Positions 28,568 to 40,708 are shown, counted from the first letter of the stretch. The stretch is DNA of 40,708 bases from an uncultured Candidatus Saccharibacteria bacterium (GCA_964353135.1 CAYGTV010000006.1:1-40708); one strand, 5' to 3'. Numbers and translations are program-made. Notes: generated by a model not told the origin, from the sequence alone.

Positions 28568-28963
28568 TTACCAAATGATGAACAATTGCTCACCGCCCAC
28601 TTTCTTTTCTCGCGCTTCTTCGCCAGTGACGATTCCTGCTGGAGTAGAAAGGATTAGGTGCCCTTGTCCAAATTTAACCGGATGAATATCCGCAACCTTC
28701 GTGTAGAGACGTCGACCTGGCTTACTGATTCGCTTCACACCACGGATGTTGTGTGCGCCATCTGTATACCCGAGTGTCACTTCGAGAGTTTTTTCTTGTA
28801 CCTTTTTCCCGGCAGTCTCTACTGATGCGAGGTATCCCGCTTCCACTAGTTTATCTGCTACCGCGTGTCGAAGTTTTGAATAAGGAACTGAAATAGTTTC
28901 CTTGTTCACTGCTCCGGCGTTCTTTAGTCGGATGATAAAATCCCCTACAACGTCGCCTACCAT
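28568..28963 (-). CDS. rpsH: 30S ribosomal protein S8
   Basis: VGDFIIRLKNA...; ATG 28963 overlaps the rpsN stop (ATGGTAG); tracked 29026 extension rejected. Confidence 0.95.
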   Translation of the reverse strand: MVGDVVGDFIIRLKNAGAVNKETISVPYSKLRHAVADKLVEAGYLASVETAGKKVQEKTLEVTLGYTDGAHNIRGVKRISKPGRRLYTKVADIHPVKFGQGHLILSTPAGIVTGEEAREKKVGGEQLFIIW

Positions 28964-29142
28964 GATGATTTCGTTACGCCTGGAATATGACCTTCGTGTG
29001 CCTGTTCTCTGAAACAGATACGACACATATCGAAGTCACGCATGTAACCCTTCCCTCGTCCACATAGTGAACAACGTCGGACAACACGCGATTTGAACTT
29101 TGGTGTCCGCGAAGCGCGGATCAAAAGTGCTTTTCGTGCCAT
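28957..29142 (-). CDS. rpsN: 30S ribosomal protein S14, type Z (zinc-binding)
   Basis: 61 aa; CSLCGR...CRIC Cys pairs. Confidence 0.95.
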   Translation of the reverse strand: MARKALLIRASRTPKFKSRVVRRCSLCGRGKGYMRDFDMCRICFREQAHEGHIPGVTKSSW

Positions 29143-29284
29143 TTTGTATTCTTAGCTGTGGAGTAGTTTCATCTAGAATTGATGACTTGCTCCTTAATAA
29201 ATTCGGCAAAACCTGATTCAGATCAAGCCTACAACGATTACTAGCAACCAATGGAGTTAGGACTAGCAACACGTCTTGGGCAGT

Positions 29285-29312
29285 ACTATACGCTATTTAT
29301 ATGGGATTGCAA
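29285..29312 (-). promoter_or_regulatory. promoter candidate restarting rpsN-to-secY transcription
   Basis: Minus strand TTGCAA-N16-TATAGT immediately after the insertion terminator. Confidence 0.5.
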
Positions 29313-29315
29313 TAG

Positions 29316-29347
29316 AAAAAGGCCCCGTACGCATAACGCACGGGGCC
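29316..29347 (-). terminator. rho-independent terminator of the 750-aa gene
   Basis: ggccccgt / acggggcc stem followed by TTTTT on the minus strand. Confidence 0.7.
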
Positions 29348-29396
29348 AAAGTTGATCTCACCGGTTTTCACCGGAAATATCAATTATAAAGAACCA

Positions 29397-31649
29397 TCAC
29401 CAACCAGAAGAACCGCCACCGAAGCCTCCACCTCCTCCAAAACCGGAAGATCCGCCGCCGAAGCCAGAAGAGCTGCCAAAAGAAGATGAGCCTCCGCCAA
29501 AAGACGAGCTTGGGGGAGGCTGTTGTCTCCGGCGCCGAGCGGCAGCACGAGAGCTTTCCGCGCTGCTATGGTCTGACTTAGCGCGCTTCAGCGATGTCTC
29601 AGCGCGCTGGCTTGCAGCTTGTGCCAAACCAATAATGACATCAACGTCATTAGCCCGCTCCATATCTTTCAGCAGCCTCTCTGCCTCTGAAAGTTTTGCT
29701 CGCGCTGCTGACTTGACGTCACCATGGTGATTTTGGTGATAACGCTTAGCTGTCGTCAGAGCAGCGACAGCTTCTTTCCGAAGACGCTCAGCCATTTCAC
29801 GTTTACGCTTTGCTTGGTCTTGGTCCTGCACAGCAAGCGCATACGCTTCGTCAGCAATCTGATCGGCCGCCGAAGCTGCTTTTAGAGCAGCGATCACGTT
29901 AGGCTTTTTTACAGCCATCAGTTCTCGTGCCTGCTTGAGACGCACAGCTGCATTGCTCAGGTTACTCCGATGCCTCGCGACGTCGGTATCGTGTGGATTG
30001 TCGCGCAAGTAGGCGCGCGCCACGTTGATACTTCTGTCAGCTTCATCGATTTCAGCTTGAGCCTCGACTCTGTCTGTTTCCAGACGTTGTCGCAACTGAG
30101 AAACTGATTCGAGTAAACCAGAAACTCCAGCCAGGAACGCCATGGTCTCAGTCAGCATTGAATCCGCCTCATCCCAGTCCTGAGAATCAAGCAGTTGCTG
30201 TACACTCTCGAGCATTGCCGGAACTTCCTTCAGCCTAATTTCGGCTTCAGATCCATTACCAACAACACTCTCGTAGCACACTTGCGCAAATTGACGGAAC
30301 ATCGCATCGTAGTCCTCGTGTGCTTGTTGCACAAAAGTACCAGATGCTTTATACCGATCAATTAGCTGTGTGTGTACCAAAAGCAGACCTGCCTTGCGAG
30401 CAGGTAACCCATCAGACGTTTTTTGGACCAGGGCGGTTTGGTCTTCCGCCTCAGTCAGCTTTTCGCGGGCTTTATCGTACTCTTTATCATCGAAATGACG
30501 TTGAGCTTGAACCACCGAGATCTTTGCAGCTGCAAGCTGCTCTGACAACGACGCAACGATAAACCCTTCTGCTTCACGGAACAGAAGGCTTGCGCCCGTC
30601 TTACTGTGTGAAGCCAAAGCTTCTGCTTTGTCAGTAACAAAGCTGGCATGCAAGTCTTTTTGACTGAATATTTCAGTCTCCAAGCGTAGCAAGTTCTCTG
30701 TATGCTTCGTGAAACGCTCCAGCAAAGCTGTGAGCATATTACGAACTTCAGCAAACTCTTCGACTGTGCCAACTTCGCGAAATTGCTCTTCTTCAGACAT
30801 CTGGAACGATGTGCTGTCAGAAGCGTAGTCGCTCAAGAGAAGTTCGAACTGACGACGCCAAGTACTGAGGAGCCGGGGATGTACCCAGGACACATCAGCA
30901 TCTTCACCAATAGCAGCTTTGAGCCGCCTCATGATGTCTTCAAGCTTCGTAAACTGACCGTACGCACCTGTCCAAGCAGTATGAGCTTGCTGCTTTGCTT
31001 GACGCATACGCCCAAGGTAATTGAGAACATACTGCAAAGCAAAGAACAGCATTGCTGCTGCAGCCAAGCCCCCCAGCACGTAGATCAGTGGCCTTGGATC
31101 AATCGGTTCACGATCAACACGTGGTTCAGAAACGATAGTGACCGGAGCGCTTGGTGTCCGAGCACGCTCGATCACCAGCTGGGTTTCTTCAATCCCGCGA
31201 ATAAACGCGCGATCAAAGTTGCCGTCACGCAATGACGGCTTCATTTTGCTATCCATCACGCCACGCCAAGTGCGATCCAGTTCGTTTGCCCAGCTGTCGC
31301 CATAGTAGATACCAATCTGCCGGTTCATGGTGACCCAGTAGATAATCAGATTGGAATAGCGGTCACCAGAAGCAACGTCATTCGACCATTGGTCGGCACA
31401 GACTGTATCGGCGATATTCTCAACATGTCCGTCAATAGACCGATACGATCCGTGATCCGGTTCGACACGAACACGAATGTCCGCACCAGTCAGCTCAGCA
31501 AGTTCTACTGCAGCAGCCTCAATGCCAGGAATATTTTTAAGCACTCCTGCCGTATCAACCACCACCTGATCACATGGATTAAGCGCAGCCGCAGAAATCG
31601 GAAAAAACGACGCTAAAAGCGTCATTGTCGTCATATTTGGAATACGCAT
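29397..31649 (-). CDS. TPM-domain (YgcG-like) membrane protein with ~470-aa helical insert and Gly-rich tail
   Basis: Signal peptide; VVVDTAGVLKN...ELTGADIRVRV TPM pattern; TM LIYVLGGLAAAAMLFFALQYVL; long predicted-helical region; C-terminal GGGSSGFGGGGGFGGGSSGW. Confidence 0.75.
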   Translation of the reverse strand: MRIPNMTTMTLLASFFPISAAALNPCDQVVVDTAGVLKNIPGIEAAAVELAELTGADIRVRVEPDHGSYRSIDGHVENIADTVCADQWSNDVASGDRYSNLIIYWVTMNRQIGIYYGDSWANELDRTWRGVMDSKMKPSLRDGNFDRAFIRGIEETQLVIERARTPSAPVTIVSEPRVDREPIDPRPLIYVLGGLAAAAMLFFALQYVLNYLGRMRQAKQQAHTAWTGAYGQFTKLEDIMRRLKAAIGEDADVSWVHPRLLSTWRRQFELLLSDYASDSTSFQMSEEEQFREVGTVEEFAEVRNMLTALLERFTKHTENLLRLETEIFSQKDLHASFVTDKAEALASHSKTGASLLFREAEGFIVASLSEQLAAAKISVVQAQRHFDDKEYDKAREKLTEAEDQTALVQKTSDGLPARKAGLLLVHTQLIDRYKASGTFVQQAHEDYDAMFRQFAQVCYESVVGNGSEAEIRLKEVPAMLESVQQLLDSQDWDEADSMLTETMAFLAGVSGLLESVSQLRQRLETDRVEAQAEIDEADRSINVARAYLRDNPHDTDVARHRSNLSNAAVRLKQARELMAVKKPNVIAALKAASAADQIADEAYALAVQDQDQAKRKREMAERLRKEAVAALTTAKRYHQNHHGDVKSAARAKLSEAERLLKDMERANDVDVIIGLAQAASQRAETSLKRAKSDHSSAESSRAAARRRRQQPPPSSSFGGGSSSFGSSSGFGGGSSGFGGGGGFGGGSSGW

Positions 31650-31753
31650 GTGCGTTTCTCCCTGTTAGTAATATATGAAGCCGGTATAGGAGTCAGATTG
31701 AACCGGCGGATTTTCAAGTATGCGGACTAGAAGTCCAGCCCACTCCGGGTATG

Positions 31754-31781
31754 ATTATGCTTGTTTTTTATGAAAAGTCAA
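31754..31781 (-). promoter_or_regulatory. promoter candidate for the 750-aa gene
   Basis: Minus strand TTGACT-N16-CATAAT; GGGAG SD 8 nt before ATG 31649. Confidence 0.45.
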
Positions 31782-31784
31782 TAG

Positions 31785-31819
31785 AAAAAGGCGCCCTCGC
31801 TGTTGCGGGGCGCCTTTTT
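31785..31819. terminator. terminator (A5-stem-T5) after the 121-aa gene
   Basis: ggcgccc / gggcgcc stem flanked by A5 and T5. Confidence 0.65.
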
Positions 31820-31822
31820 GTT

Positions 31823-32188
31823 TTACCCGAACAGTGCGCCGGGCCAAGCGATGACGACGTAGAGACAGATGCCAATAAGGACCAGCGGCAATTCCTTTTG
31901 CAGGCGGTCACTCCGAAAAGAATCCTTGAGGTACCGCCATTTCACATAGAGCAGAATTCCATCATTTTGAAAGTCTGTTGGGATAAAATTACCCAAAACT
32001 GCCAGACCAATGATTGCAGCCAAACTTGAGCCGCTCACGCCATCTTGGAATCTGTCTTTGACGTAGTACAGATAGGCCGTGACGGCCATCCAGACAAGCA
32101 TGATGAATACTTGTGTCCACTGCCACCATGTTTCAGGTGTCGTCCAAAAATGTTCCATACAATGTTCCTCTTCAAGAGCAAACTGCAA
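31823..32188 (-). CDS. small Trp-rich multi-TM membrane protein, unknown family
   Basis: 121-aa ORF with about 3 hydrophobic segments; alternative ATG at 32158; terminator immediately follows the stop. Confidence 0.5.
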   Translation of the reverse strand: MQFALEEEHCMEHFWTTPETWWQWTQVFIMLVWMAVTAYLYYVKDRFQDGVSGSSLAAIIGLAVLGNFIPTDFQNDGILLYVKWRYLKDSFRSDRLQKELPLVLIGICLYVVIAWPGALFG

Positions 32189-32304
32189 CAGCGCAGCTTT
32201 TCGATAAACTTATACCACAGTTTTTTTAAAACAGGAATACCGATTGTTTTACAGACGTGTAAAGTTGTGGTTAGAAGAAACGCATCACAGCAGAGGTACA
32301 CATC

Positions 32305-32955
32305 GTGACAAAACCAGTTGAACCACACCAAATCAATCTCAATCACCAGAAACAAATCGAGGCGGCGCTCATCAAAAGCGCGATCATCGAGAGGTGGGCA
32401 ATTGCCCGGAGAAACATTGGTATTGGAGCAACGGTCTGTGGCATGTTGCTATTTACCATTTGGGCATTTATGTATGCCTCTGTGTTGCCGAGTCCTATAT
32501 TCGTTGCTATCGTTGGGCTAACGTTTTTTGTCTTTACAATCGCCATTGGTGTTGTGCTGATACTGCACCAACAATCATACCTGGCCAGGCGCGCAACTCT
32601 GGAGGACTCGCTTCGTTCTGACACTATCGGAGCCGTGAACGACGCTCTTGGACAATTGCTGCGGGACACTGTCGGCGATTTGTCAGAACATGAAGAAACA
32701 ATCACTTACGGTGAAAGGATTGTGGCAGGGGTTGAAGTACTCACCGATCGGCGAGCGGGGCTACAGAGACGTATTACTTCACTCTACAGTGAAATGGGTC
32801 TCCAGGAGGCTATTCGCGCCATGGTCACCGAGGCCATGGAACTTAAGCCTGTGAGGCAAAACATCGAGCCAGTCACAAGGTTCATGGAGGTACATTCAGC
32901 ACCCTTGGAACCAATTGATCAGAAACGATCAGAAGCTGTTCACGCAGCAGAATAA
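32305..32955 (+). CDS. 2-TM membrane protein with cytoplasmic helical domain, unknown family
   Basis: 216-aa ORF, GTG start with AGAGG 9 nt upstream. Confidence 0.55.
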   Translation: MTKPVEPHQINLNHQKQIEAALIKSAIIERWAIARRNIGIGATVCGMLLFTIWAFMYASVLPSPIFVAIVGLTFFVFTIAIGVVLILHQQSYLARRATLEDSLRSDTIGAVNDALGQLLRDTVGDLSEHEETITYGERIVAGVEVLTDRRAGLQRRITSLYSEMGLQEAIRAMVTEAMELKPVRQNIEPVTRFMEVHSAPLEPIDQKRSEAVHAAE

Positions 32956-32962
32956 ATGCAGA

Positions 32963-32993
32963 GGGCGGGTCCATACACTAGGATCCGCCCTTT
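32963..32993. terminator. terminator between convergent genes
   Basis: gggcgggtcc / ggatccgccc (one G-U), followed by TTT. Confidence 0.55.
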
Positions 32994-33004
32994 CTCACGT
33001 CAAA

Positions 33005-33481
33005 TTATATGTTCCTTTCTGCTCGTAACTCCATCCAGATCTTTCCTAGGTTATTTTCTCCCTTCCAATCTGCTCCCCTACCCCAAAATTCGTCCTTTGG
33101 TGAATCTTCTACCAACTCGGCGTCACCAGACTCGATGAGCACTTTTTGGATATACGGATGCTGCTCTAGTTTTGCTCGGCAGATTTCTTTCATAATTGGT
33201 AGCTGGTCCTCTTTCCAGGTTGGCCGCGCTTGATTTAAGTATTTTATGGCAAGTTTCAAGGCATCGTGAGCGGAGGAGGCATTATAAATTTCTTCCACAA
33301 TCTGCTTATCGTCAAAGCAAGCTGCCTGAAATGCATGTTCAGAAGTCTGCCAAACTCGATCACGCCACACAACGTTAAATGCAGCAAAGTTCGAAAAACA
33401 ATAGCCAAATTCACCGCCATAAAATAAAACCTGTCCACCGGTTTCTTCTTGGGAATCATTTACACCTTTAGTAATAAACAT
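33005..33481 (-). CDS. NADAR (YbiA/DUF1768) family protein
   Basis: FYGGEFGYCFSNFAAF...WQTSEHAFQA...EDSPKDEFWGRG...GENNLGKIWMELR motifs. Confidence 0.8.
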   Translation of the reverse strand: MFITKGVNDSQEETGGQVLFYGGEFGYCFSNFAAFNVVWRDRVWQTSEHAFQAACFDDKQIVEEIYNASSAHDALKLAIKYLNQARPTWKEDQLPIMKEICRAKLEQHPYIQKVLIESGDAELVEDSPKDEFWGRGADWKGENNLGKIWMELRAERNI

Positions 33482-33497
33482 ATGACTACCAGTATAA

Positions 33498-33527
33498 CAA
33501 AAAGACCGCCGGCATAACCGACGGTCT
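33498..33527 (-). terminator. terminator after rplE
   Basis: agaccgccgg / ccgacggtct (one mismatch), followed by TTTTTG on the minus strand. Confidence 0.55.
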
Positions 33528-33549
33528 TTCTGTTTGTTTCAATGTGAAA

Positions 33550-34104
33550 CTATTTTGCTTCAGCAACTTCTGGCTTCTTCAACGGCATTCCCACATGACG
33601 TAGTAATGCTTCGGCTTCAGCTTTTGTTTTGGCTGTGGTCACGATTGTGATCGACATTCCAAACACGTCACGGATATCTTCATCTGCAGTTTCAGGGAAG
33701 ATTGTGTGTTCCTTGATCCCGAGAGTGTAGTTACCCATTTCGTCGATTGACGTAGCCTTGAGCCCACGGAAGTCACGCGTTTGTGGTAGAGCAACGTGAA
33801 CTAGTTTGTTCATGAAGTCCATCATTCGCTGACCTCGCAGGGTTACCTGGTACCCAACGATGTCCCCTTCTCGAAGCTTGAACGCTGCGATTGATAGACG
33901 CGCTGGTCGTGGTGATGCTTTTTGTCCTGTAATAAGCGCCAATCGATCTTGGATAAGAGCAATCTTTGCTTTGTCTTCTACTCGGCCGGTTCCGACTGAG
34001 ATCACTACCTTTTCGATAGTTGCCGCTTCGTTCACATTCTTGTATCCAAAGTCTCCTTTATGAGTCTCATAGACCGATGCGAGGCGAGTCTGTACTGTTT
34101 CCAT
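33550..34104 (-). CDS. rplE: 50S ribosomal protein L5
   Basis: FGYKNVNEAATIEKVVISVGTG...RDFRGL...GNYTLGIKE. Confidence 0.95.
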   Translation of the reverse strand: METVQTRLASVYETHKGDFGYKNVNEAATIEKVVISVGTGRVEDKAKIALIQDRLALITGQKASPRPARLSIAAFKLREGDIVGYQVTLRGQRMMDFMNKLVHVALPQTRDFRGLKATSIDEMGNYTLGIKEHTIFPETADEDIRDVFGMSITIVTTAKTKAEAEALLRHVGMPLKKPEVAEAK

Positions 34105-37227: not shown

Positions 37228-37481
37228 ATTTATTTTTTATTGTTGGGTAAATACCGCGTGTAGTTAGTGTATGCATGCTAGATATGGCATGTATCACCGT
37301 CAGTGGCGGCTTGCAAGTGTGTCTATATAGCAAGAAAGTAACGGCTTTCTCTACCAACACAACTTACGACTTCGTTCTTTGCTGGTGCCAAGTACCGGTA
37401 GGTAGTTGGACGTGAGGTTGGAACTGCATAAACATACCAAATAAAGACATAAAGTCAATTGATTGTGCTACTCTTGGAGCA

Positions 37482-38060
37482 ATGATCACTCCTTCTCACA
37501 TGATTTATAGCTGGGCGATTGCCAAAGCTATCAAAGCTGCGCCTGATAAGCGGCGGACTCTGGCATTTGTAGCGGGTGGACTAGCGCCAGATCTACCGAC
37601 CTATGCCTTTTTCTTTGTAAACACCTTCCTACTTGGTACATCACAACAGCTGATGTGGGACACACTGTATTTTGATTCTGCCTGGACACCGGTTATTACC
37701 CTCTCTCATTCACTGTTGATTTGGCCAGTAGTGCTACTGTTTGCAACAATGACCAAGTGCACACTGCTGCGTTTTTTCTCTATCTCAGTTTTGTTGCATA
37801 TCAGCCTCGATTTTATGACACACCATGACGATGCGTACCGGCATTTTTGGCCACTGAGTGATTGGAAATTCTTGAGCCCTCTCTCCTACTACGATCCGCA
37901 GTACTACGGAAACTGGGTCAGTGCAATCGATACCATCGTAGTAATCGGGCTACTGATGTGGCTAACTACGGTGTATCCAAGCAAAAAAGCAAGAATTGGA
38001 ATTGTTGCAGTAATTACTTTGTACGTTGCGACTGTAATTGCATCTTATTTAATCTGGTAA
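37482..38060 (+). CDS. polytopic membrane protein, possibly metal-dependent hydrolase-like (DUF457/YdjM-like)
   Basis: 192 aa; His-rich motifs HSLL and HISLDFMTHHDDAYRHFWP; by-eye family guess. Confidence 0.4.
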   Translation: MITPSHMIYSWAIAKAIKAAPDKRRTLAFVAGGLAPDLPTYAFFFVNTFLLGTSQQLMWDTLYFDSAWTPVITLSHSLLIWPVVLLFATMTKCTLLRFFSISVLLHISLDFMTHHDDAYRHFWPLSDWKFLSPLSYYDPQYYGNWVSAIDTIVVIGLLMWLTTVYPSKKARIGIVAVITLYVATVIASYLIW

Positions 38061-38066
38061 TCCTGT

Positions 38067-38381
38067 ATGGCAAAACCACGCGGAAGAGAGCACACAACCC
38101 TCACTGAAACTGCCTCACAGGTGGTAAAAGAGTTATACAAAATCCCCGGCATCAAAATGATCGCCCCAGGTGAAATCAGTACAGGGTCAAAGCGCGGAGG
38201 AAAACGATTTGTCACTGTCGTGAAAACAACCAGTGGTTGCGAGCTGATCATTACCGGACAAAGCGTGCAAAAGGTCGCCGTACATACAGACAATGTAGAT
38301 GCCATTATTCCAGCACTGAAACAAACGAAAACACTGCAAGAATTCTCATTCAAGCAGCGTGATCGTAAACCTGGAGTCTGA
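38067..38381 (+). CDS. hypothetical protein (104 aa)
   Basis: ORF 6 nt downstream of the previous gene; no family recognised. Confidence 0.5.
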   Translation: MAKPRGREHTTLTETASQVVKELYKIPGIKMIAPGEISTGSKRGGKRFVTVVKTTSGCELIITGQSVQKVAVHTDNVDAIIPALKQTKTLQEFSFKQRDRKPGV

Positions 38382-38384
38382 ATC

Positions 38385-38645
38385 CTAATCTAATTGTCTT
38401 TCAATTTCGTAAGCTTTTTCTTGAACCGTTCTTGAGTCCAAGTCCTCTAATCCTAATTCACTCAATTCAGCGGCCAATTCCTTGATCGCAGAATCAAGTT
38501 GCGGGTTGGGTCCCGGTACTGGATCTCTTGATAAAAGTACAACTTTTTTTGCCAACTCAACGGCCTGAACAGAAACCTCTACTGTTTCATTTGAATTTGG
38601 TACTGCTTCTGCCTTTCCCCACTTCTCCCGAATATTTTGAAACAT
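38385..38645 (-). CDS. hypothetical acidic helical protein (86 aa)
   Basis: ORF starting 9 nt after the stop of the 478-aa gene, same strand. Confidence 0.45.
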   Translation of the reverse strand: MFQNIREKWGKAEAVPNSNETVEVSVQAVELAKKVVLLSRDPVPGPNPQLDSAIKELAAELSELGLEDLDSRTVQEKAYEIERQLD

Positions 38646-38654
38646 ATCTGTAAA

Positions 38655-40091
38655 TTATAGTTCATCTAGAGCCTCCTCAATTAGATCTTCTGCTTCTTTC
38701 GCTAGATCTTCTGCCTCTTCCCAGTCTTCGTCATCTAGTGCATCTTCGGCATCATTGAGTAGGTCCTTAGCTTCATCAAGCAAATCTCGAGCATCTTCTG
38801 CTCCACGATCATCATCGTCTTCGGCGTCGTCTACTTCGTCGTCAGCATCCTTGTACTCTTCCCAGGCATCATCAACCGCGTCACGCGCGTCGTCTTCGTC
38901 TTCGTCTGATCCGCCGATTGAATCAATTGCTTGGTCAATTAGTTTTTCGGCTTTACTTGCAAGCGATGAGGCATCTTCCCAGTCTTGGTCATCGAGAGCT
39001 GCTTCTGCTCGCTTGATTTCGCGCTCTGCGTCATTGAGAAAGTCCTCAGCCTCATCAACGTCTTTCCCATCTTCGTCTGCTTCATCGATCTCTTCTTCAG
39101 CTTTTTTATACTCATCTTTGGCGTCTTCTACATCTCGGTCAGCGTCCTTTTCAGTCACAACATCGATTTCGTCTTTAGCGTCCTCGAGTATTTCTTCGGC
39201 ATCTAGAGCATCACTTTTAGCCTGGCGGTATATACCGGCATCAAATGCATCCTCGGCATCATTTAGTAGATCTTTGGCGTCATCGAGCATGTCTTCTGCA
39301 TCACCAATGTCAGCATTTTGATCATCTGCCTCGTCGATAAGCTCTTGTACATCTTCGTATAGATCCCACACATCATCTAAAACGTCCTCGGTTTCACTTT
39401 TTTCTGATTCTCCGCCGGCGTCCTCTAGCACATCTGTCGCATCATCAAGCGCTTCTTCTCCAATTTCAATTGCTTCATCAAAATCACCATTAAAGAATGC
39501 TAGCAGTGCCTCAAATAGATCAGCCCGCACGTCACTCAAATCATCTTCCAGTTCTGCCCGGTCTTCCTCATCATTTTCATCTTCAACTTGTTCTTCAGCA
39601 TCAATTACCATGGAAACTGCATCTTCTAGGATGCGAGCTGCTTGATCTGACTCTTCGCTACCAGCTTCCACTGACACACCTGCCACAACTGGAGCTGGCA
39701 TAGCTACTGGCTCTACCACCTCTGCAGCCAGTGTTTGCTGTTGTGCTTCTAGTTTTGCGACCACATCTAGCAGGTAGGCGGCTTGTGAGCCGGGCCCAAA
39801 CACTCCGTTTGCTCCTGGCACGTTACGAGCTTCTTGCCATCGCAGCACGGCCGCCTCAGTCAACCCACCGTACATAGTAGTTTCGTTTCCAGCCGAACCT
39901 ACCCCACTCTCTGCAACGGCAAACCCAGCTGTGTTTAGGAACATTTGCAGACAACGAACGTCTTCCCCATTATCACCTATACTTAGCGTGCGGCTAAATG
40001 CACATTCATTATTTGCTGAGGCTATAACCGGAGTTATTACTAGTACTACTGCTGCAAAAATAAATGTTCGAAATGAAATTGATTGAGTCAT
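38655..40091 (-). CDS. secreted peptidoglycan-binding-domain protein with hyper-acidic helical repeats
   Basis: Signal peptide; PG_binding_1-like LSIGDNGEDVRCLQMFLN...GGLTEAAVLRWQ; C-terminal ~330 aa dominated by Asp/Glu with repeated (D/E)AKDLLNDAEDA(L/F)D..DWE(E/D)A units. Confidence 0.7.
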   Translation of the reverse strand: MTQSISFRTFIFAAVVLVITPVIASANNECAFSRTLSIGDNGEDVRCLQMFLNTAGFAVAESGVGSAGNETTMYGGLTEAAVLRWQEARNVPGANGVFGPGSQAAYLLDVVAKLEAQQQTLAAEVVEPVAMPAPVVAGVSVEAGSEESDQAARILEDAVSMVIDAEEQVEDENDEEDRAELEDDLSDVRADLFEALLAFFNGDFDEAIEIGEEALDDATDVLEDAGGESEKSETEDVLDDVWDLYEDVQELIDEADDQNADIGDAEDMLDDAKDLLNDAEDAFDAGIYRQAKSDALDAEEILEDAKDEIDVVTEKDADRDVEDAKDEYKKAEEEIDEADEDGKDVDEAEDFLNDAEREIKRAEAALDDQDWEDASSLASKAEKLIDQAIDSIGGSDEDEDDARDAVDDAWEEYKDADDEVDDAEDDDDRGAEDARDLLDEAKDLLNDAEDALDDEDWEEAEDLAKEAEDLIEEALDEL

Positions 40092-40131
40092 GATTAAAAT
40101 ACCTAATATCTAATATGGATACAGTATAACA

Positions 40132-40169
40132 GACAAAACAAAACCACCCGAGTGGTGGTTTGTTTTGTT
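40132..40169 (-). terminator. rho-independent terminator after the SH3 gene
   Basis: Long A/C-rich vs G/T-rich stem around ccacc-cgagt-ggtgg, followed by a T-rich tract on the minus strand. Confidence 0.6.
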
Positions 40170-40184
40170 AGTAGTTGTTATTAG

Positions 40185-40708
40185 CTACTGCTGCTTGGCC
40201 AGCATTTCTGCCAGGAGCGTCATGAGCACAATAATCTGTTTCTGTAGTTCCTCAATTTGAACAAGGATCAAAGCATCATTTGTACTACTAACTGCTAGGC
40301 TGACTGGTTGTGTAAACTCACTCGCCACATACCCTTCTACACCGTTGTCAAAGCGCACTTTGTGCCAGAAATATCCATCTTTCGCAATTGCATCCGATGT
40401 TAGTTGTACTCCAGTACTTCCAAGCGCCACCTGCTTAACCAACGCTCCACCAGGCGTCAACCGTACATTTAGATTGCTGGTTGAACGCACTCGTGTTTCT
40501 TTTGCTACGGGTGCAGGATTTGTACCTGGTTTTTTATCTGATCCTACTGTACTAGGCGTATTAGAACTAGTTTCTTTGACAGTGTCTTCTACACCATTAT
40601 TGTCCGAGCCACCAGAAGAACTTGATCCACCGCCGCCTGCACTGCCTGAATTTTGACCTCCTGAGCTACCCCCGGTCGAACCTGTAGTACTTGGTGTTGG
40701 TGTTGGGG
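40185..40708 (-). CDS. bacterial SH3-domain protein, 5'-partial (runs off window)
   Basis: NLNVRLTPGG...DGYFWHKVRFDNGVEGYVASEF SH3_3 pattern; the frame stays open for 72 codons upstream of the tracked GTG 40490 to the window edge (PTPTPSTTGSTGGSSGGQNSGSAGGGGSS... linker). Confidence 0.7.
   Translation of the reverse strand, partial: PTPTPSTTGSTGGSSGGQNSGSAGGGGSSSSGGSDNNGVEDTVKETSSNTPSTVGSDKKPGTNPAPVAKETRVRSTSNLNVRLTPGGALVKQVALGSTGVQLTSDAIAKDGYFWHKVRFDNGVEGYVASEFTQPVSLAVSSTNDALILVQIEELQKQIIVLMTLLAEMLAKQQ

Follow-up and report, generated by a model that had tools for sequence, protein, structure and literature searches.

A family-wide break between rplE and rpsN in Paceibacteria, with variable cargo genes and a candidate S8 operator in the rpsN leader

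The spc cluster of ribosomal protein genes serves as an anchor for synteny and phylogeny, the candidate phyla radiation (CPR) included, and is held to be among the most stable gene orders in bacteria, so that a split shared by a whole family is unexpected. Hotspots in which accessory genes gather between core genes were reportedly found in many bacterial species by Oliveira et al. in 2017. In Escherichia coli, the operator for ribosomal protein S8 lies over the start of rplE, and this structure is narrowly distributed, being restricted to Gammaproteobacteria (PMC3616713). A 2024 review gives the regulation of spc in species other than Gammaproteobacteria as unknown (PMC10931766), and a screen with 20 new ribosomal protein leaders included none for S8 or rpsN (PMC7247131). 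The stretch of DNA analysed here (the window; 40,708 nt, or 40.7 kb) is the entire contig C6 (CAYGTV010000006.1) of a 0.99 Mb genome, G000, with an estimated completeness of 99.9%, and carries the ribosomal protein cluster on its minus strand with 4,407 bp (29143–33549) separating rplE from rpsN. The organism belongs to the Patescibacteria (CPR), class Paceibacteria, as the relatives matched by rplE are metagenome-assembled genomes (MAGs) labelled Paceibacterota, Nomurabacteria or Kaiserbacteria.

A first-pass annotation of the window had described a 4.4-kb spacer between rplE and rpsN that holds four genes, and this was confirmed by the gene coordinates and Pfam matches. The genes encode a NADAR protein, two membrane proteins with no assigned family (p216 and p121) and a 750-residue protein with a TPM domain (TPM750). 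The genes rpsS, rplV, rpsC, rplP, rpmC, rpsQ, rplN, rplX and rplE are 5′ of the gap, and rpsN, rpsH, rplF, rplR, rpsE, rplO and secY are 3′ of it; no gene for L30 was found in the ribosomal cluster of the window. It is probable that the gap in G000 represents an insulated operon break, shared by the clade, that has turned into a recombination hotspot, and that an S8 operator has been relocated to the downstream half of the cluster.

Positions of rplE and rpsH were determined for each of the 165 species genomes in the family, and the spacer was taken as the distance between them minus rpsN. In the 90 genomes measured from the genus that includes G000 (g1), the spacer ranged from 185 bp to 16 kb with a median of ~1,275 bp, while ~20 more genomes of this genus had rplE and rpsH on separate contigs. 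Spacers of 218–1,810 bp were found in 15 genomes of the sister genus g19, and of 113–486 bp in eight genomes from other genera of the family. An even sample of the class (66 genomes) gave a median of ~58 bp, a slight overestimate, with 61 of the 66 at 300 bp or less and five outliers. As the spacers are enlarged throughout the family relative to the class median, the split is a derived and stable trait of the family, and its expansion to kilobases is typical of the genus. The first-pass annotation had read the locus as a single insertion into a conserved operon, and this reading is not supported, since at least 185 bp separate the two genes in every measured member of the genus and at least 113 bp elsewhere in the family. 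It had also allowed that the arrangement might prove ancestral and widespread, which holds for the split as a clade trait but not for the cargo, as this differs between nearly every species pair.

Large rplE-rpsN spacers of 0.6–5.1 kb were also seen sporadically outside the family (G201, G246, G240, G198 and G234), and the junction may have been opened independently elsewhere in Paceibacteria.

The contents of 57 gaps were compared, and the 162 open reading frames (ORFs) of at least 70 amino acids (aa) taken from them resolved into 121 singletons and 14 small clusters. A Pfam search on 138 of these ORFs identified ROK, GGDEF, Band_7, DsbA/thioredoxin and ParE proteins, type IV pilus ATPase, platform and pilin proteins, aromatic amino acid lyase, glutathionylspermidine synthase, LemA, DUF350, a Schlafen-type helicase, an ABC ATPase and OmpA. 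A single IS200 transposase was present among the 138, and none of the 25 commonest families, out of 43 identified, was an integrase. The core genes on either side are thus constant across genomes and the content of the gap variable, as in a hotspot. The closest relative of G000 is G125 (rplE 90% and rpsH 89% identical), which carries a different cargo of 7.7 kb, and the match between the two gaps at the DNA level is confined to the last 165 nt before rpsN (80% identity). Genomes G018 and G136, with ribosomal proteins that are 95.8% identical, have p216 in common and differ in the cargo between p216 and the leader of rpsN, where G018 has genes for a solute-binding protein and for a membrane protein of 285 aa in place of the TPM protein gene of G136. 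The similarity of the ribosomal proteins does not predict that of the TPM proteins in the pairs G000–G124 (84% and 28% identity, respectively), G000–L053 (71% and 40%) and G000–L050 (73% and 38%), as compared by percentage identity.

All four cargo families of G000 have homologues in the rplE-rpsN gap of other species; an early tblastn search over 24 relatives missed those of p216, p121 and the TPM protein, which a wider sample revealed. The p216 family was found as a single copy in nine of the 165 family genomes, in all nine cases within the gap and antisense to the operon, at identities of 10–22%, and an iterative hidden Markov model search among the gap ORFs recovered no further members. 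Full-length homologues of TPM750 (28–40% identity) are rare, with only three among 5.8 billion proteins and five in genomes of the family. Six of eight carriers have the gene in the gap (G000, L050 from ENA in three samples, L053 from Logan, G124, G164 and G136), and the other two have it 35 kb away (G111) or in another context (L054). Orthologues of the NADAR protein with 58–71% identity occur in ~11 species. They are in the gap in three (G000, and G021 and G121 with 65–66% identity), and two further orthologues with 69–71% identity (G018:C16:5619-6083 and G001:C68:26230-26697) lie 4–5 kb downstream of rpsH, just past secY; five of the ~11 therefore border the ribosomal protein cluster, and the rest are elsewhere. 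A homologue of p121 is in the gap of G111. No other genome holding all four cargo genes was found, and p216 and TPM750 are together in only two of the ~13 gaps that hold either. As the families recur at the locus, the four are never together elsewhere, and the TPM and ribosomal protein identities are incongruent, the gap in G000 is a mosaic whose genes come from a set of families associated with the locus, and is neither a module nor one insertion.

The second part of the finding concerns the leader of rpsN, which the first-pass annotation did not mention. Two hairpins in its upstream part differ much in length between species, and they are followed by a hairpin that resembles helix 21 of 16S rRNA, the binding site of S8. 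In G000 this hairpin reads GGAGC-A-AGUCAUC-AAUUCUA-GAUGA-AA-CU-ACUCC, and its helix ends 17 nt before the AUG of rpsN, in an mRNA that also encodes S8. The 11 contigs of G000 yielded no 16S rRNA gene despite the high estimated completeness, and helix 21 was therefore taken from five relatives in the genus, where it reads ...UUAGUCGGG...UUCGAAACGG...; the E. coli counterpart is ...AAGUCAGAUG...CAUCUGAUACUGG....

The determinants of S8 binding are the G597-C643 pair, with position 641 and the invariant A642 bulged on the 3′ strand, a base triple 595-(596-644) in which an unpaired purine is 5′ of a covarying pair (A-U in E. coli, C-G in Thermus), and U598 and A640, which are conserved between the regular helices (PMC4176348). 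In an alignment of 60 leader hairpins with a 12-pair structure, the equivalents of G597-C643 (columns 28 and 49), U598, A640 and A642 were invariant in all 60 sequences. The equivalent of position 641 was U, A or G, with A in G000 matching the 16S rRNA of the genus. The pair corresponding to 596-644 (columns 27 and 50) covaried, with A-U in 24 sequences, C-G in 20 and G-C in six, and the unpaired column 26 on its 5′ side was mostly A. Across the hairpin, 92.9% of cells were paired compared with 33–42% when the 3′ partner was slid, compensatory changes were present in 10 of the 12 pairs, and changes on both sides were found in 169 cells versus 43 ± 10 in shuffles.

A covariance model (R1) of the hairpin matched the window only once (61.2 bits, E-value 2.4e-11). 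Of the 128 members of the genus, 119 have exactly one match each, as does G074 (genus g25), always just upstream of rpsN, and genera g19 and g22 have a variant, GGUCACC...GGUGAGACC, farther upstream. The model identified no second S8 site in the rplX-rplE spacer of the window, which is the position of the E. coli operator. A search of Rfam 15 gave no match for the window at the gathering threshold, and an E-value search with the leader returned only terminator-like look-alikes. Given its covariation and its identity to the core of helix 21, the most likely interpretation of the leader hairpin is an S8 operator that has been relocated.

The first-pass annotation had also predicted three or more transcription units, with rplE followed by a terminator and rpsN preceded by a restart promoter, and the hairpins and hexamers it named were all present. 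In our own scan, 41 of 57 species had a strong terminator-like hairpin with a T-run no more than 110 nt beyond rplE, compared with 45 of 275 control windows inside gaps (16%). At the position of the restart promoter, relatives keep boxes of the form TTGnnn ... T(A/G)TA(T/G)(T/A)GT, and the genus shares a conserved −35/−10 pair before rpsN together with a putative transcript start, GCAAGACG; the element at 29285–29312 is the G000 version of this promoter. Genera g21, g24 and g26 instead share GACGCGCCGTATGTTTGACATCGG...TAGTATGC upstream of rpsN. The NADAR and p216 genes converge on a hairpin that is probably a bidirectional terminator, judging from its sequence. No conservation at the DNA level was found in relatives for the promoter-like element of TPM750.

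A nearly identical block, GACGCGCCGTATGTTTGACATCGGAATGCGTAGTTGCTAGTATGC, was observed upstream of rpsN across genera g21, g24 and g26 (L196–L200). The promoter within this block is unusually well conserved in its upstream part and its spacer, which suggests that it may be bound by a regulator. The core, GACGCGCCGA, is also found in g19 leaders.

In the explanation that we propose, the spc cluster of this family would be permanently divided into two units, with rpsS...rplE ending at an intrinsic terminator and rpsN-rpsH...secY having a promoter and leader of its own. S8 in excess over rRNA would bind the leader hairpin, and rpsN and the downstream genes coupled to it would be translationally repressed; as the stop codon of rpsN overlaps the start of rpsH, repression at rpsN could spread by coupling to the S8 gene itself. 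The DNA between the terminator and the promoter would be insulated from both halves, and its insertion, replacement or loss would be harmless to ribosomal expression. The flanks, which count among the best conserved DNA of the genome and are 70–90% identical across the genus, could act as long homology arms, allowing whole cargos to be swapped between species by homologous recombination without an integrase. The 4.4 kb in G000 would then be one state of the hotspot, with four self-contained genes that do not form a functional module. An insulated site with homology arms would explain the absence of integrases, the fast turnover, the families found only at this locus and the many assembly breaks. 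A bolder version, offered only tentatively and with more doubt than confidence, is that spc control was rebuilt, with the S8 operator moving from rplE to the rpsN leader, and that families bound to the gap (p216, giant TPM proteins and NADAR) circulate between species by recombination in the flanking genes. If so, these families would constitute a flexible gene pool for ultra-small, integrase-poor genomes.

Several observations weigh against the proposed explanation. Promoter-like hits in the region numbered 14, compared with 16.8 in shuffles, and as a general scan is no better than chance, the promoter calls depend on their conservation among relatives. The S8-like hairpin is 70–230 nt upstream of rpsN, with extra sequence between them, in about a third of the species, and there more than a simple masking of the ribosome-binding site must be at work. 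In genera g21, g24 and g26 the break and promoter are present, and no recognisable hairpin was found. Lastly, the divergence of the shared cargo (10–40% identity) would also fit ancient residence with repeated loss.

Such residence is the content of one alternative, in which p216, TPM750, NADAR and p121 would be old, vertically inherited occupants of the gap that were lost or replaced in most lineages without exchange between species. It accords with the great divergence of the p216 and TPM families, in which recent transfer is not visible, and with the finding that all copies keep their place and p216 its antisense orientation. However, each family is present in only six to nine of the ~128 species, so that dozens of independent losses would be needed, and TPM similarity does not track that of the ribosomal proteins. 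Moreover, what separates the near-identical G018 and G136 is the replacement of one stretch by another of about the same length, and not a simple deletion. Vertical inheritance with massive loss is consequently the weaker alternative for the shared families, and we consider it unlikely. The first-pass annotation had proposed that the location among ribosomal genes might tie an envelope module to growth rate; a coupling to ribosome function belongs to the same alternative. Although p216 is confined to this locus and TPM750 largely so, and all but one of the four products are membrane proteins, the units carry terminator and promoter signals of their own, the four genes are not inherited as a set, the overlap between p216 and TPM750 is small, and other species hold unrelated GGDEF, ROK and pilus genes at this position. 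The coupling thus found no support, and a functional module is quite improbable.

It is more improbable still that a single recent mobile element brought all four genes into an intact operon. The imperfect direct repeat of 31 nt that brackets TPM750 could be the remnant of an insertion, for TPM750 alone. However, searches of Pfam, NCBIfam and PADLOC detected no recombinase or transposase gene in the gap of G000, no repeats were found at its outer ends (29143 and 33549), the gap is present in every relative, and the four genes are nowhere else together. The earlier statement that recombinases and flanking repeats are lacking therefore stands for recombinases, and for repeats needs only the addition of this imperfect one. 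The slimmest chance of all is left to an assembly chimera, another suggestion of the first-pass annotation, in which the rplE and rpsN halves, or foreign DNA, were joined though not contiguous in the cell. The ~20 MAGs of the genus that break between rplE and rpsH do indicate a region that is hard to assemble. Against this, both flanks are equally related to G125, the gap opens with the usual rplE terminator and closes with the usual promoter and leader, and its GC content (0.49) is unremarkable. The same architecture is seen in more than 100 independent assemblies, including the closed, single-contig genomes G106, G107 and G108 (= CP060229), with spacers of 5.5, 0.34 and 1.3 kb, respectively, and TPM750 homologues are in the gap of five other assemblies. 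The reading that we prefer therefore remains a clade-wide, insulated break that probably became a recombination hotspot, with a relocated S8 operator.

Table 1. Features of the rplE-rpsN region in the window, listed in the direction of the operon
Feature	Coordinates	Strand	Basis or remark
rplE (L5)	33550..34104	-	Pfam Ribosomal_L5 + L5_C; last gene of upstream unit rpsS...rplE
Terminator-like hairpin and T-run after rplE, AAAGACCGTCGG-TTAT-GCCGGCGGTCTTTTTGTT	~33498..33530	-	read from sequence
NADAR/YbiA-type N-glycosidase gene, 158 aa	33005..33481	-	PF08719 1.5e-29; TIGR02464
GC-rich hairpin between convergent NADAR and p216, GGGCGGATCC-TAGTGTAT-GGACCCGCCC	32962..32990	.	read from sequence
p216, two-transmembrane helical-hairpin membrane protein with helical C-terminal domain	32305..32955	+	antisense to operon
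p121, small polytopic membrane protein	31823..32188	-	ORF call
Terminator-like hairpin after p121	~31790..31815	-	inverted repeat I5
Promoter-like TTGACT-N16-CATAAT of TPM750, then ~100-nt 5′ untranslated region	31754..31781	-	10/12 matches
TPM750, YgcG-like	29397..31649	-	TPM domain PF04536 3.2e-9, residues 30-156
Imperfect 31-nt direct repeat bracketing TPM750 unit	29296..29326 and 31765..31795	.	family D3, 77% identity, spacing 2,469 bp
Strong terminator-like hairpin after TPM750, 12-bp stem, 9 GC pairs, T-run	29321..29347	-	sequence
Putative restart promoter TTGCAA-N16-TATAGT for rpsN...secY	29285..29312	-	boxes align with relatives
rpsN leader, ~135 nt: GCCCAAGACG..., two variable hairpins, S8-site hairpin, A-rich stretch	29143..29278	-	alignment by eye, 69 upstream regions
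Hairpin like 16S helix 21 (S8-site mimic)	29160..29193	-	covariance-model match 29154-29211
rpsN (S14, zinc type, 61 aa)	28957..29142	-	PF00253 8.5e-24; first gene of downstream unit
rpsH (S8), presumed repressor	28568..28963	-	ATG overlaps rpsN end, from coordinates

The locations and strands of these features are given in Table 1. The NADAR protein is a full-length, single-domain match, scoring 103.8 bits with PF08719 (cut-off 35.1) and 100.3 bits with TIGR02464 (cut-off 73.7). PADLOC analysis of the cargo genes returned only a weak match to this protein, with 71 bits for the anti-phage NADAR model compared with a cut-off of 240. No Pfam, NCBIfam or PADLOC match was found for p216, for which the AlphaFold2 model is all-helical and of low confidence (pLDDT 65, pTM 0.34), and p121 also matched no family. 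The TPM domain of TPM750 scored 37.3 bits (Pfam cut-off 22.1), and the protein consists of a signal peptide, the TPM domain, a transmembrane helix, a helical region of ~500 aa and a Gly-rich tail, of which the transmembrane helix and tail were read from the sequence. Profile searches revealed no link of the cargo genes to ribosomes or to known defence systems.

Each copy of the 31-nt repeat consists of the 3′ arm of a terminator, the T-run and a −35 box, with a 17-nt core, GGsGCCTTTTTCTATTG, that is identical save for position s. This arrangement is suggestive, and no more than that, of the TPM750 unit having been added beside the rpsN promoter with duplication of the junction, the repeat being the footprint.

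Further elements were observed between the S8-like hairpin and rpsN in some species. In L078 and L035 (G113 and G012), an element of ~130 nt with inverted repeats, AATGTACAATTTG ... CAAATTGTACATT, at its ends could represent a leader insertion of the miniature inverted-repeat type. Another conserved element of ~100 nt is shared by L087, L093, L091, L085 and L034 (G123, G178, G157, G159 and G014, respectively); it includes ...GTCCAGCAATTTC...GAAATTGGGACGTAAATTCAATATAGTCGCTACGCTC...TTTCATTT, a hairpin and a TATAGT box, and is possibly an additional promoter or else a small structured RNA. Tandem CCCTAAACCCT(G/T)(G/C)TCCCTAAACCCT repeats and a GC-rich hairpin are in the same position in L011, L015 and L019 (G005, G004 and G011).

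Contigs were often found to stop within or beside the gap, as in G018 (C20, 21-79, and C16, 1-57), G135 (C92 and C64) and ~20 other MAGs, and in G018 the S8-like hairpin is present on both contig ends. These ends may reflect variation of the cargo between strains that breaks assemblies.

In G000 the cluster is interrupted in its S10 part as well, with rplC-rplD-rplW-rplB on contig C2 (229794-232402), ~1.5 kb from the contig end. In the window, genes for a YdjM-like protein, a DUF2103 protein, an 86-aa product and an acidic peptidoglycan-binding protein precede rpsS (37228-40708). Three small genes separate rplB and rpsS in L050 from ENA, and a DUF2103 gene adjoins rpsS in L053, G124, G164, G136 and G019. 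The rplB-rpsS junction may be a second hotspot.

The rplE-rpsN split is the most variable small locus in its surroundings and affects both binning and assembly. The leader hairpin provides a concrete candidate for an S8 operator, with strong covariation, outside Gammaproteobacteria. The locus is also a tractable example of how accessory genes are still gained and lost in reduced genomes that have no obvious machinery of mobile elements.

Among described protein families, the NADAR protein of G000 is full-length like the NADAR/YbiA N-glycosidases, but has no riboflavin-pathway or DarT-like neighbour. TPM750 shares with the YgcG-type TPM proteins a signal peptide, TPM domain, transmembrane helix and Gly-rich C-terminal tail. 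Unlike these proteins, which are often paired with LemA, it has a helical insert of ~500 aa between the transmembrane helix and the tail, and no LemA gene adjacent to it, a LemA homologue being encoded on another contig of G000.

The gap resembles chromosomal hotspots in its constant core flanks, its mostly unique content and its fast turnover among close relatives. However, it is located inside a ribosomal protein operon, usually among the most syntenic of loci, and has no association with a tRNA gene or integrase. It is also found in genomes of only 0.6–1.2 Mb, and some of its cargo families seem to be bound to the locus.

The closest parallel to the leader hairpin is the S8 operator of the E. 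coli spc operon, which is likewise a hairpin in the spc mRNA that reproduces helix 21, with the downstream S8 gene translationally coupled. Both have the G-C pair, two bulged bases on the 3′ strand including the invariant A, the U-A pair and, beside a pair that covaries, a bulged purine. In contrast to the E. coli operator, the hairpin described here occurs in Patescibacteria, is absent from Rfam 15 and is placed in a 5′ leader before rpsN, behind a putative internal promoter, where L14, L24 and L5 would be beyond its reach. As its sole match in the window precedes rpsN and none is found at the rplX-rplE spacer, the leader hairpin is not a member of the E. coli RNA family, though it is likely to work alike.

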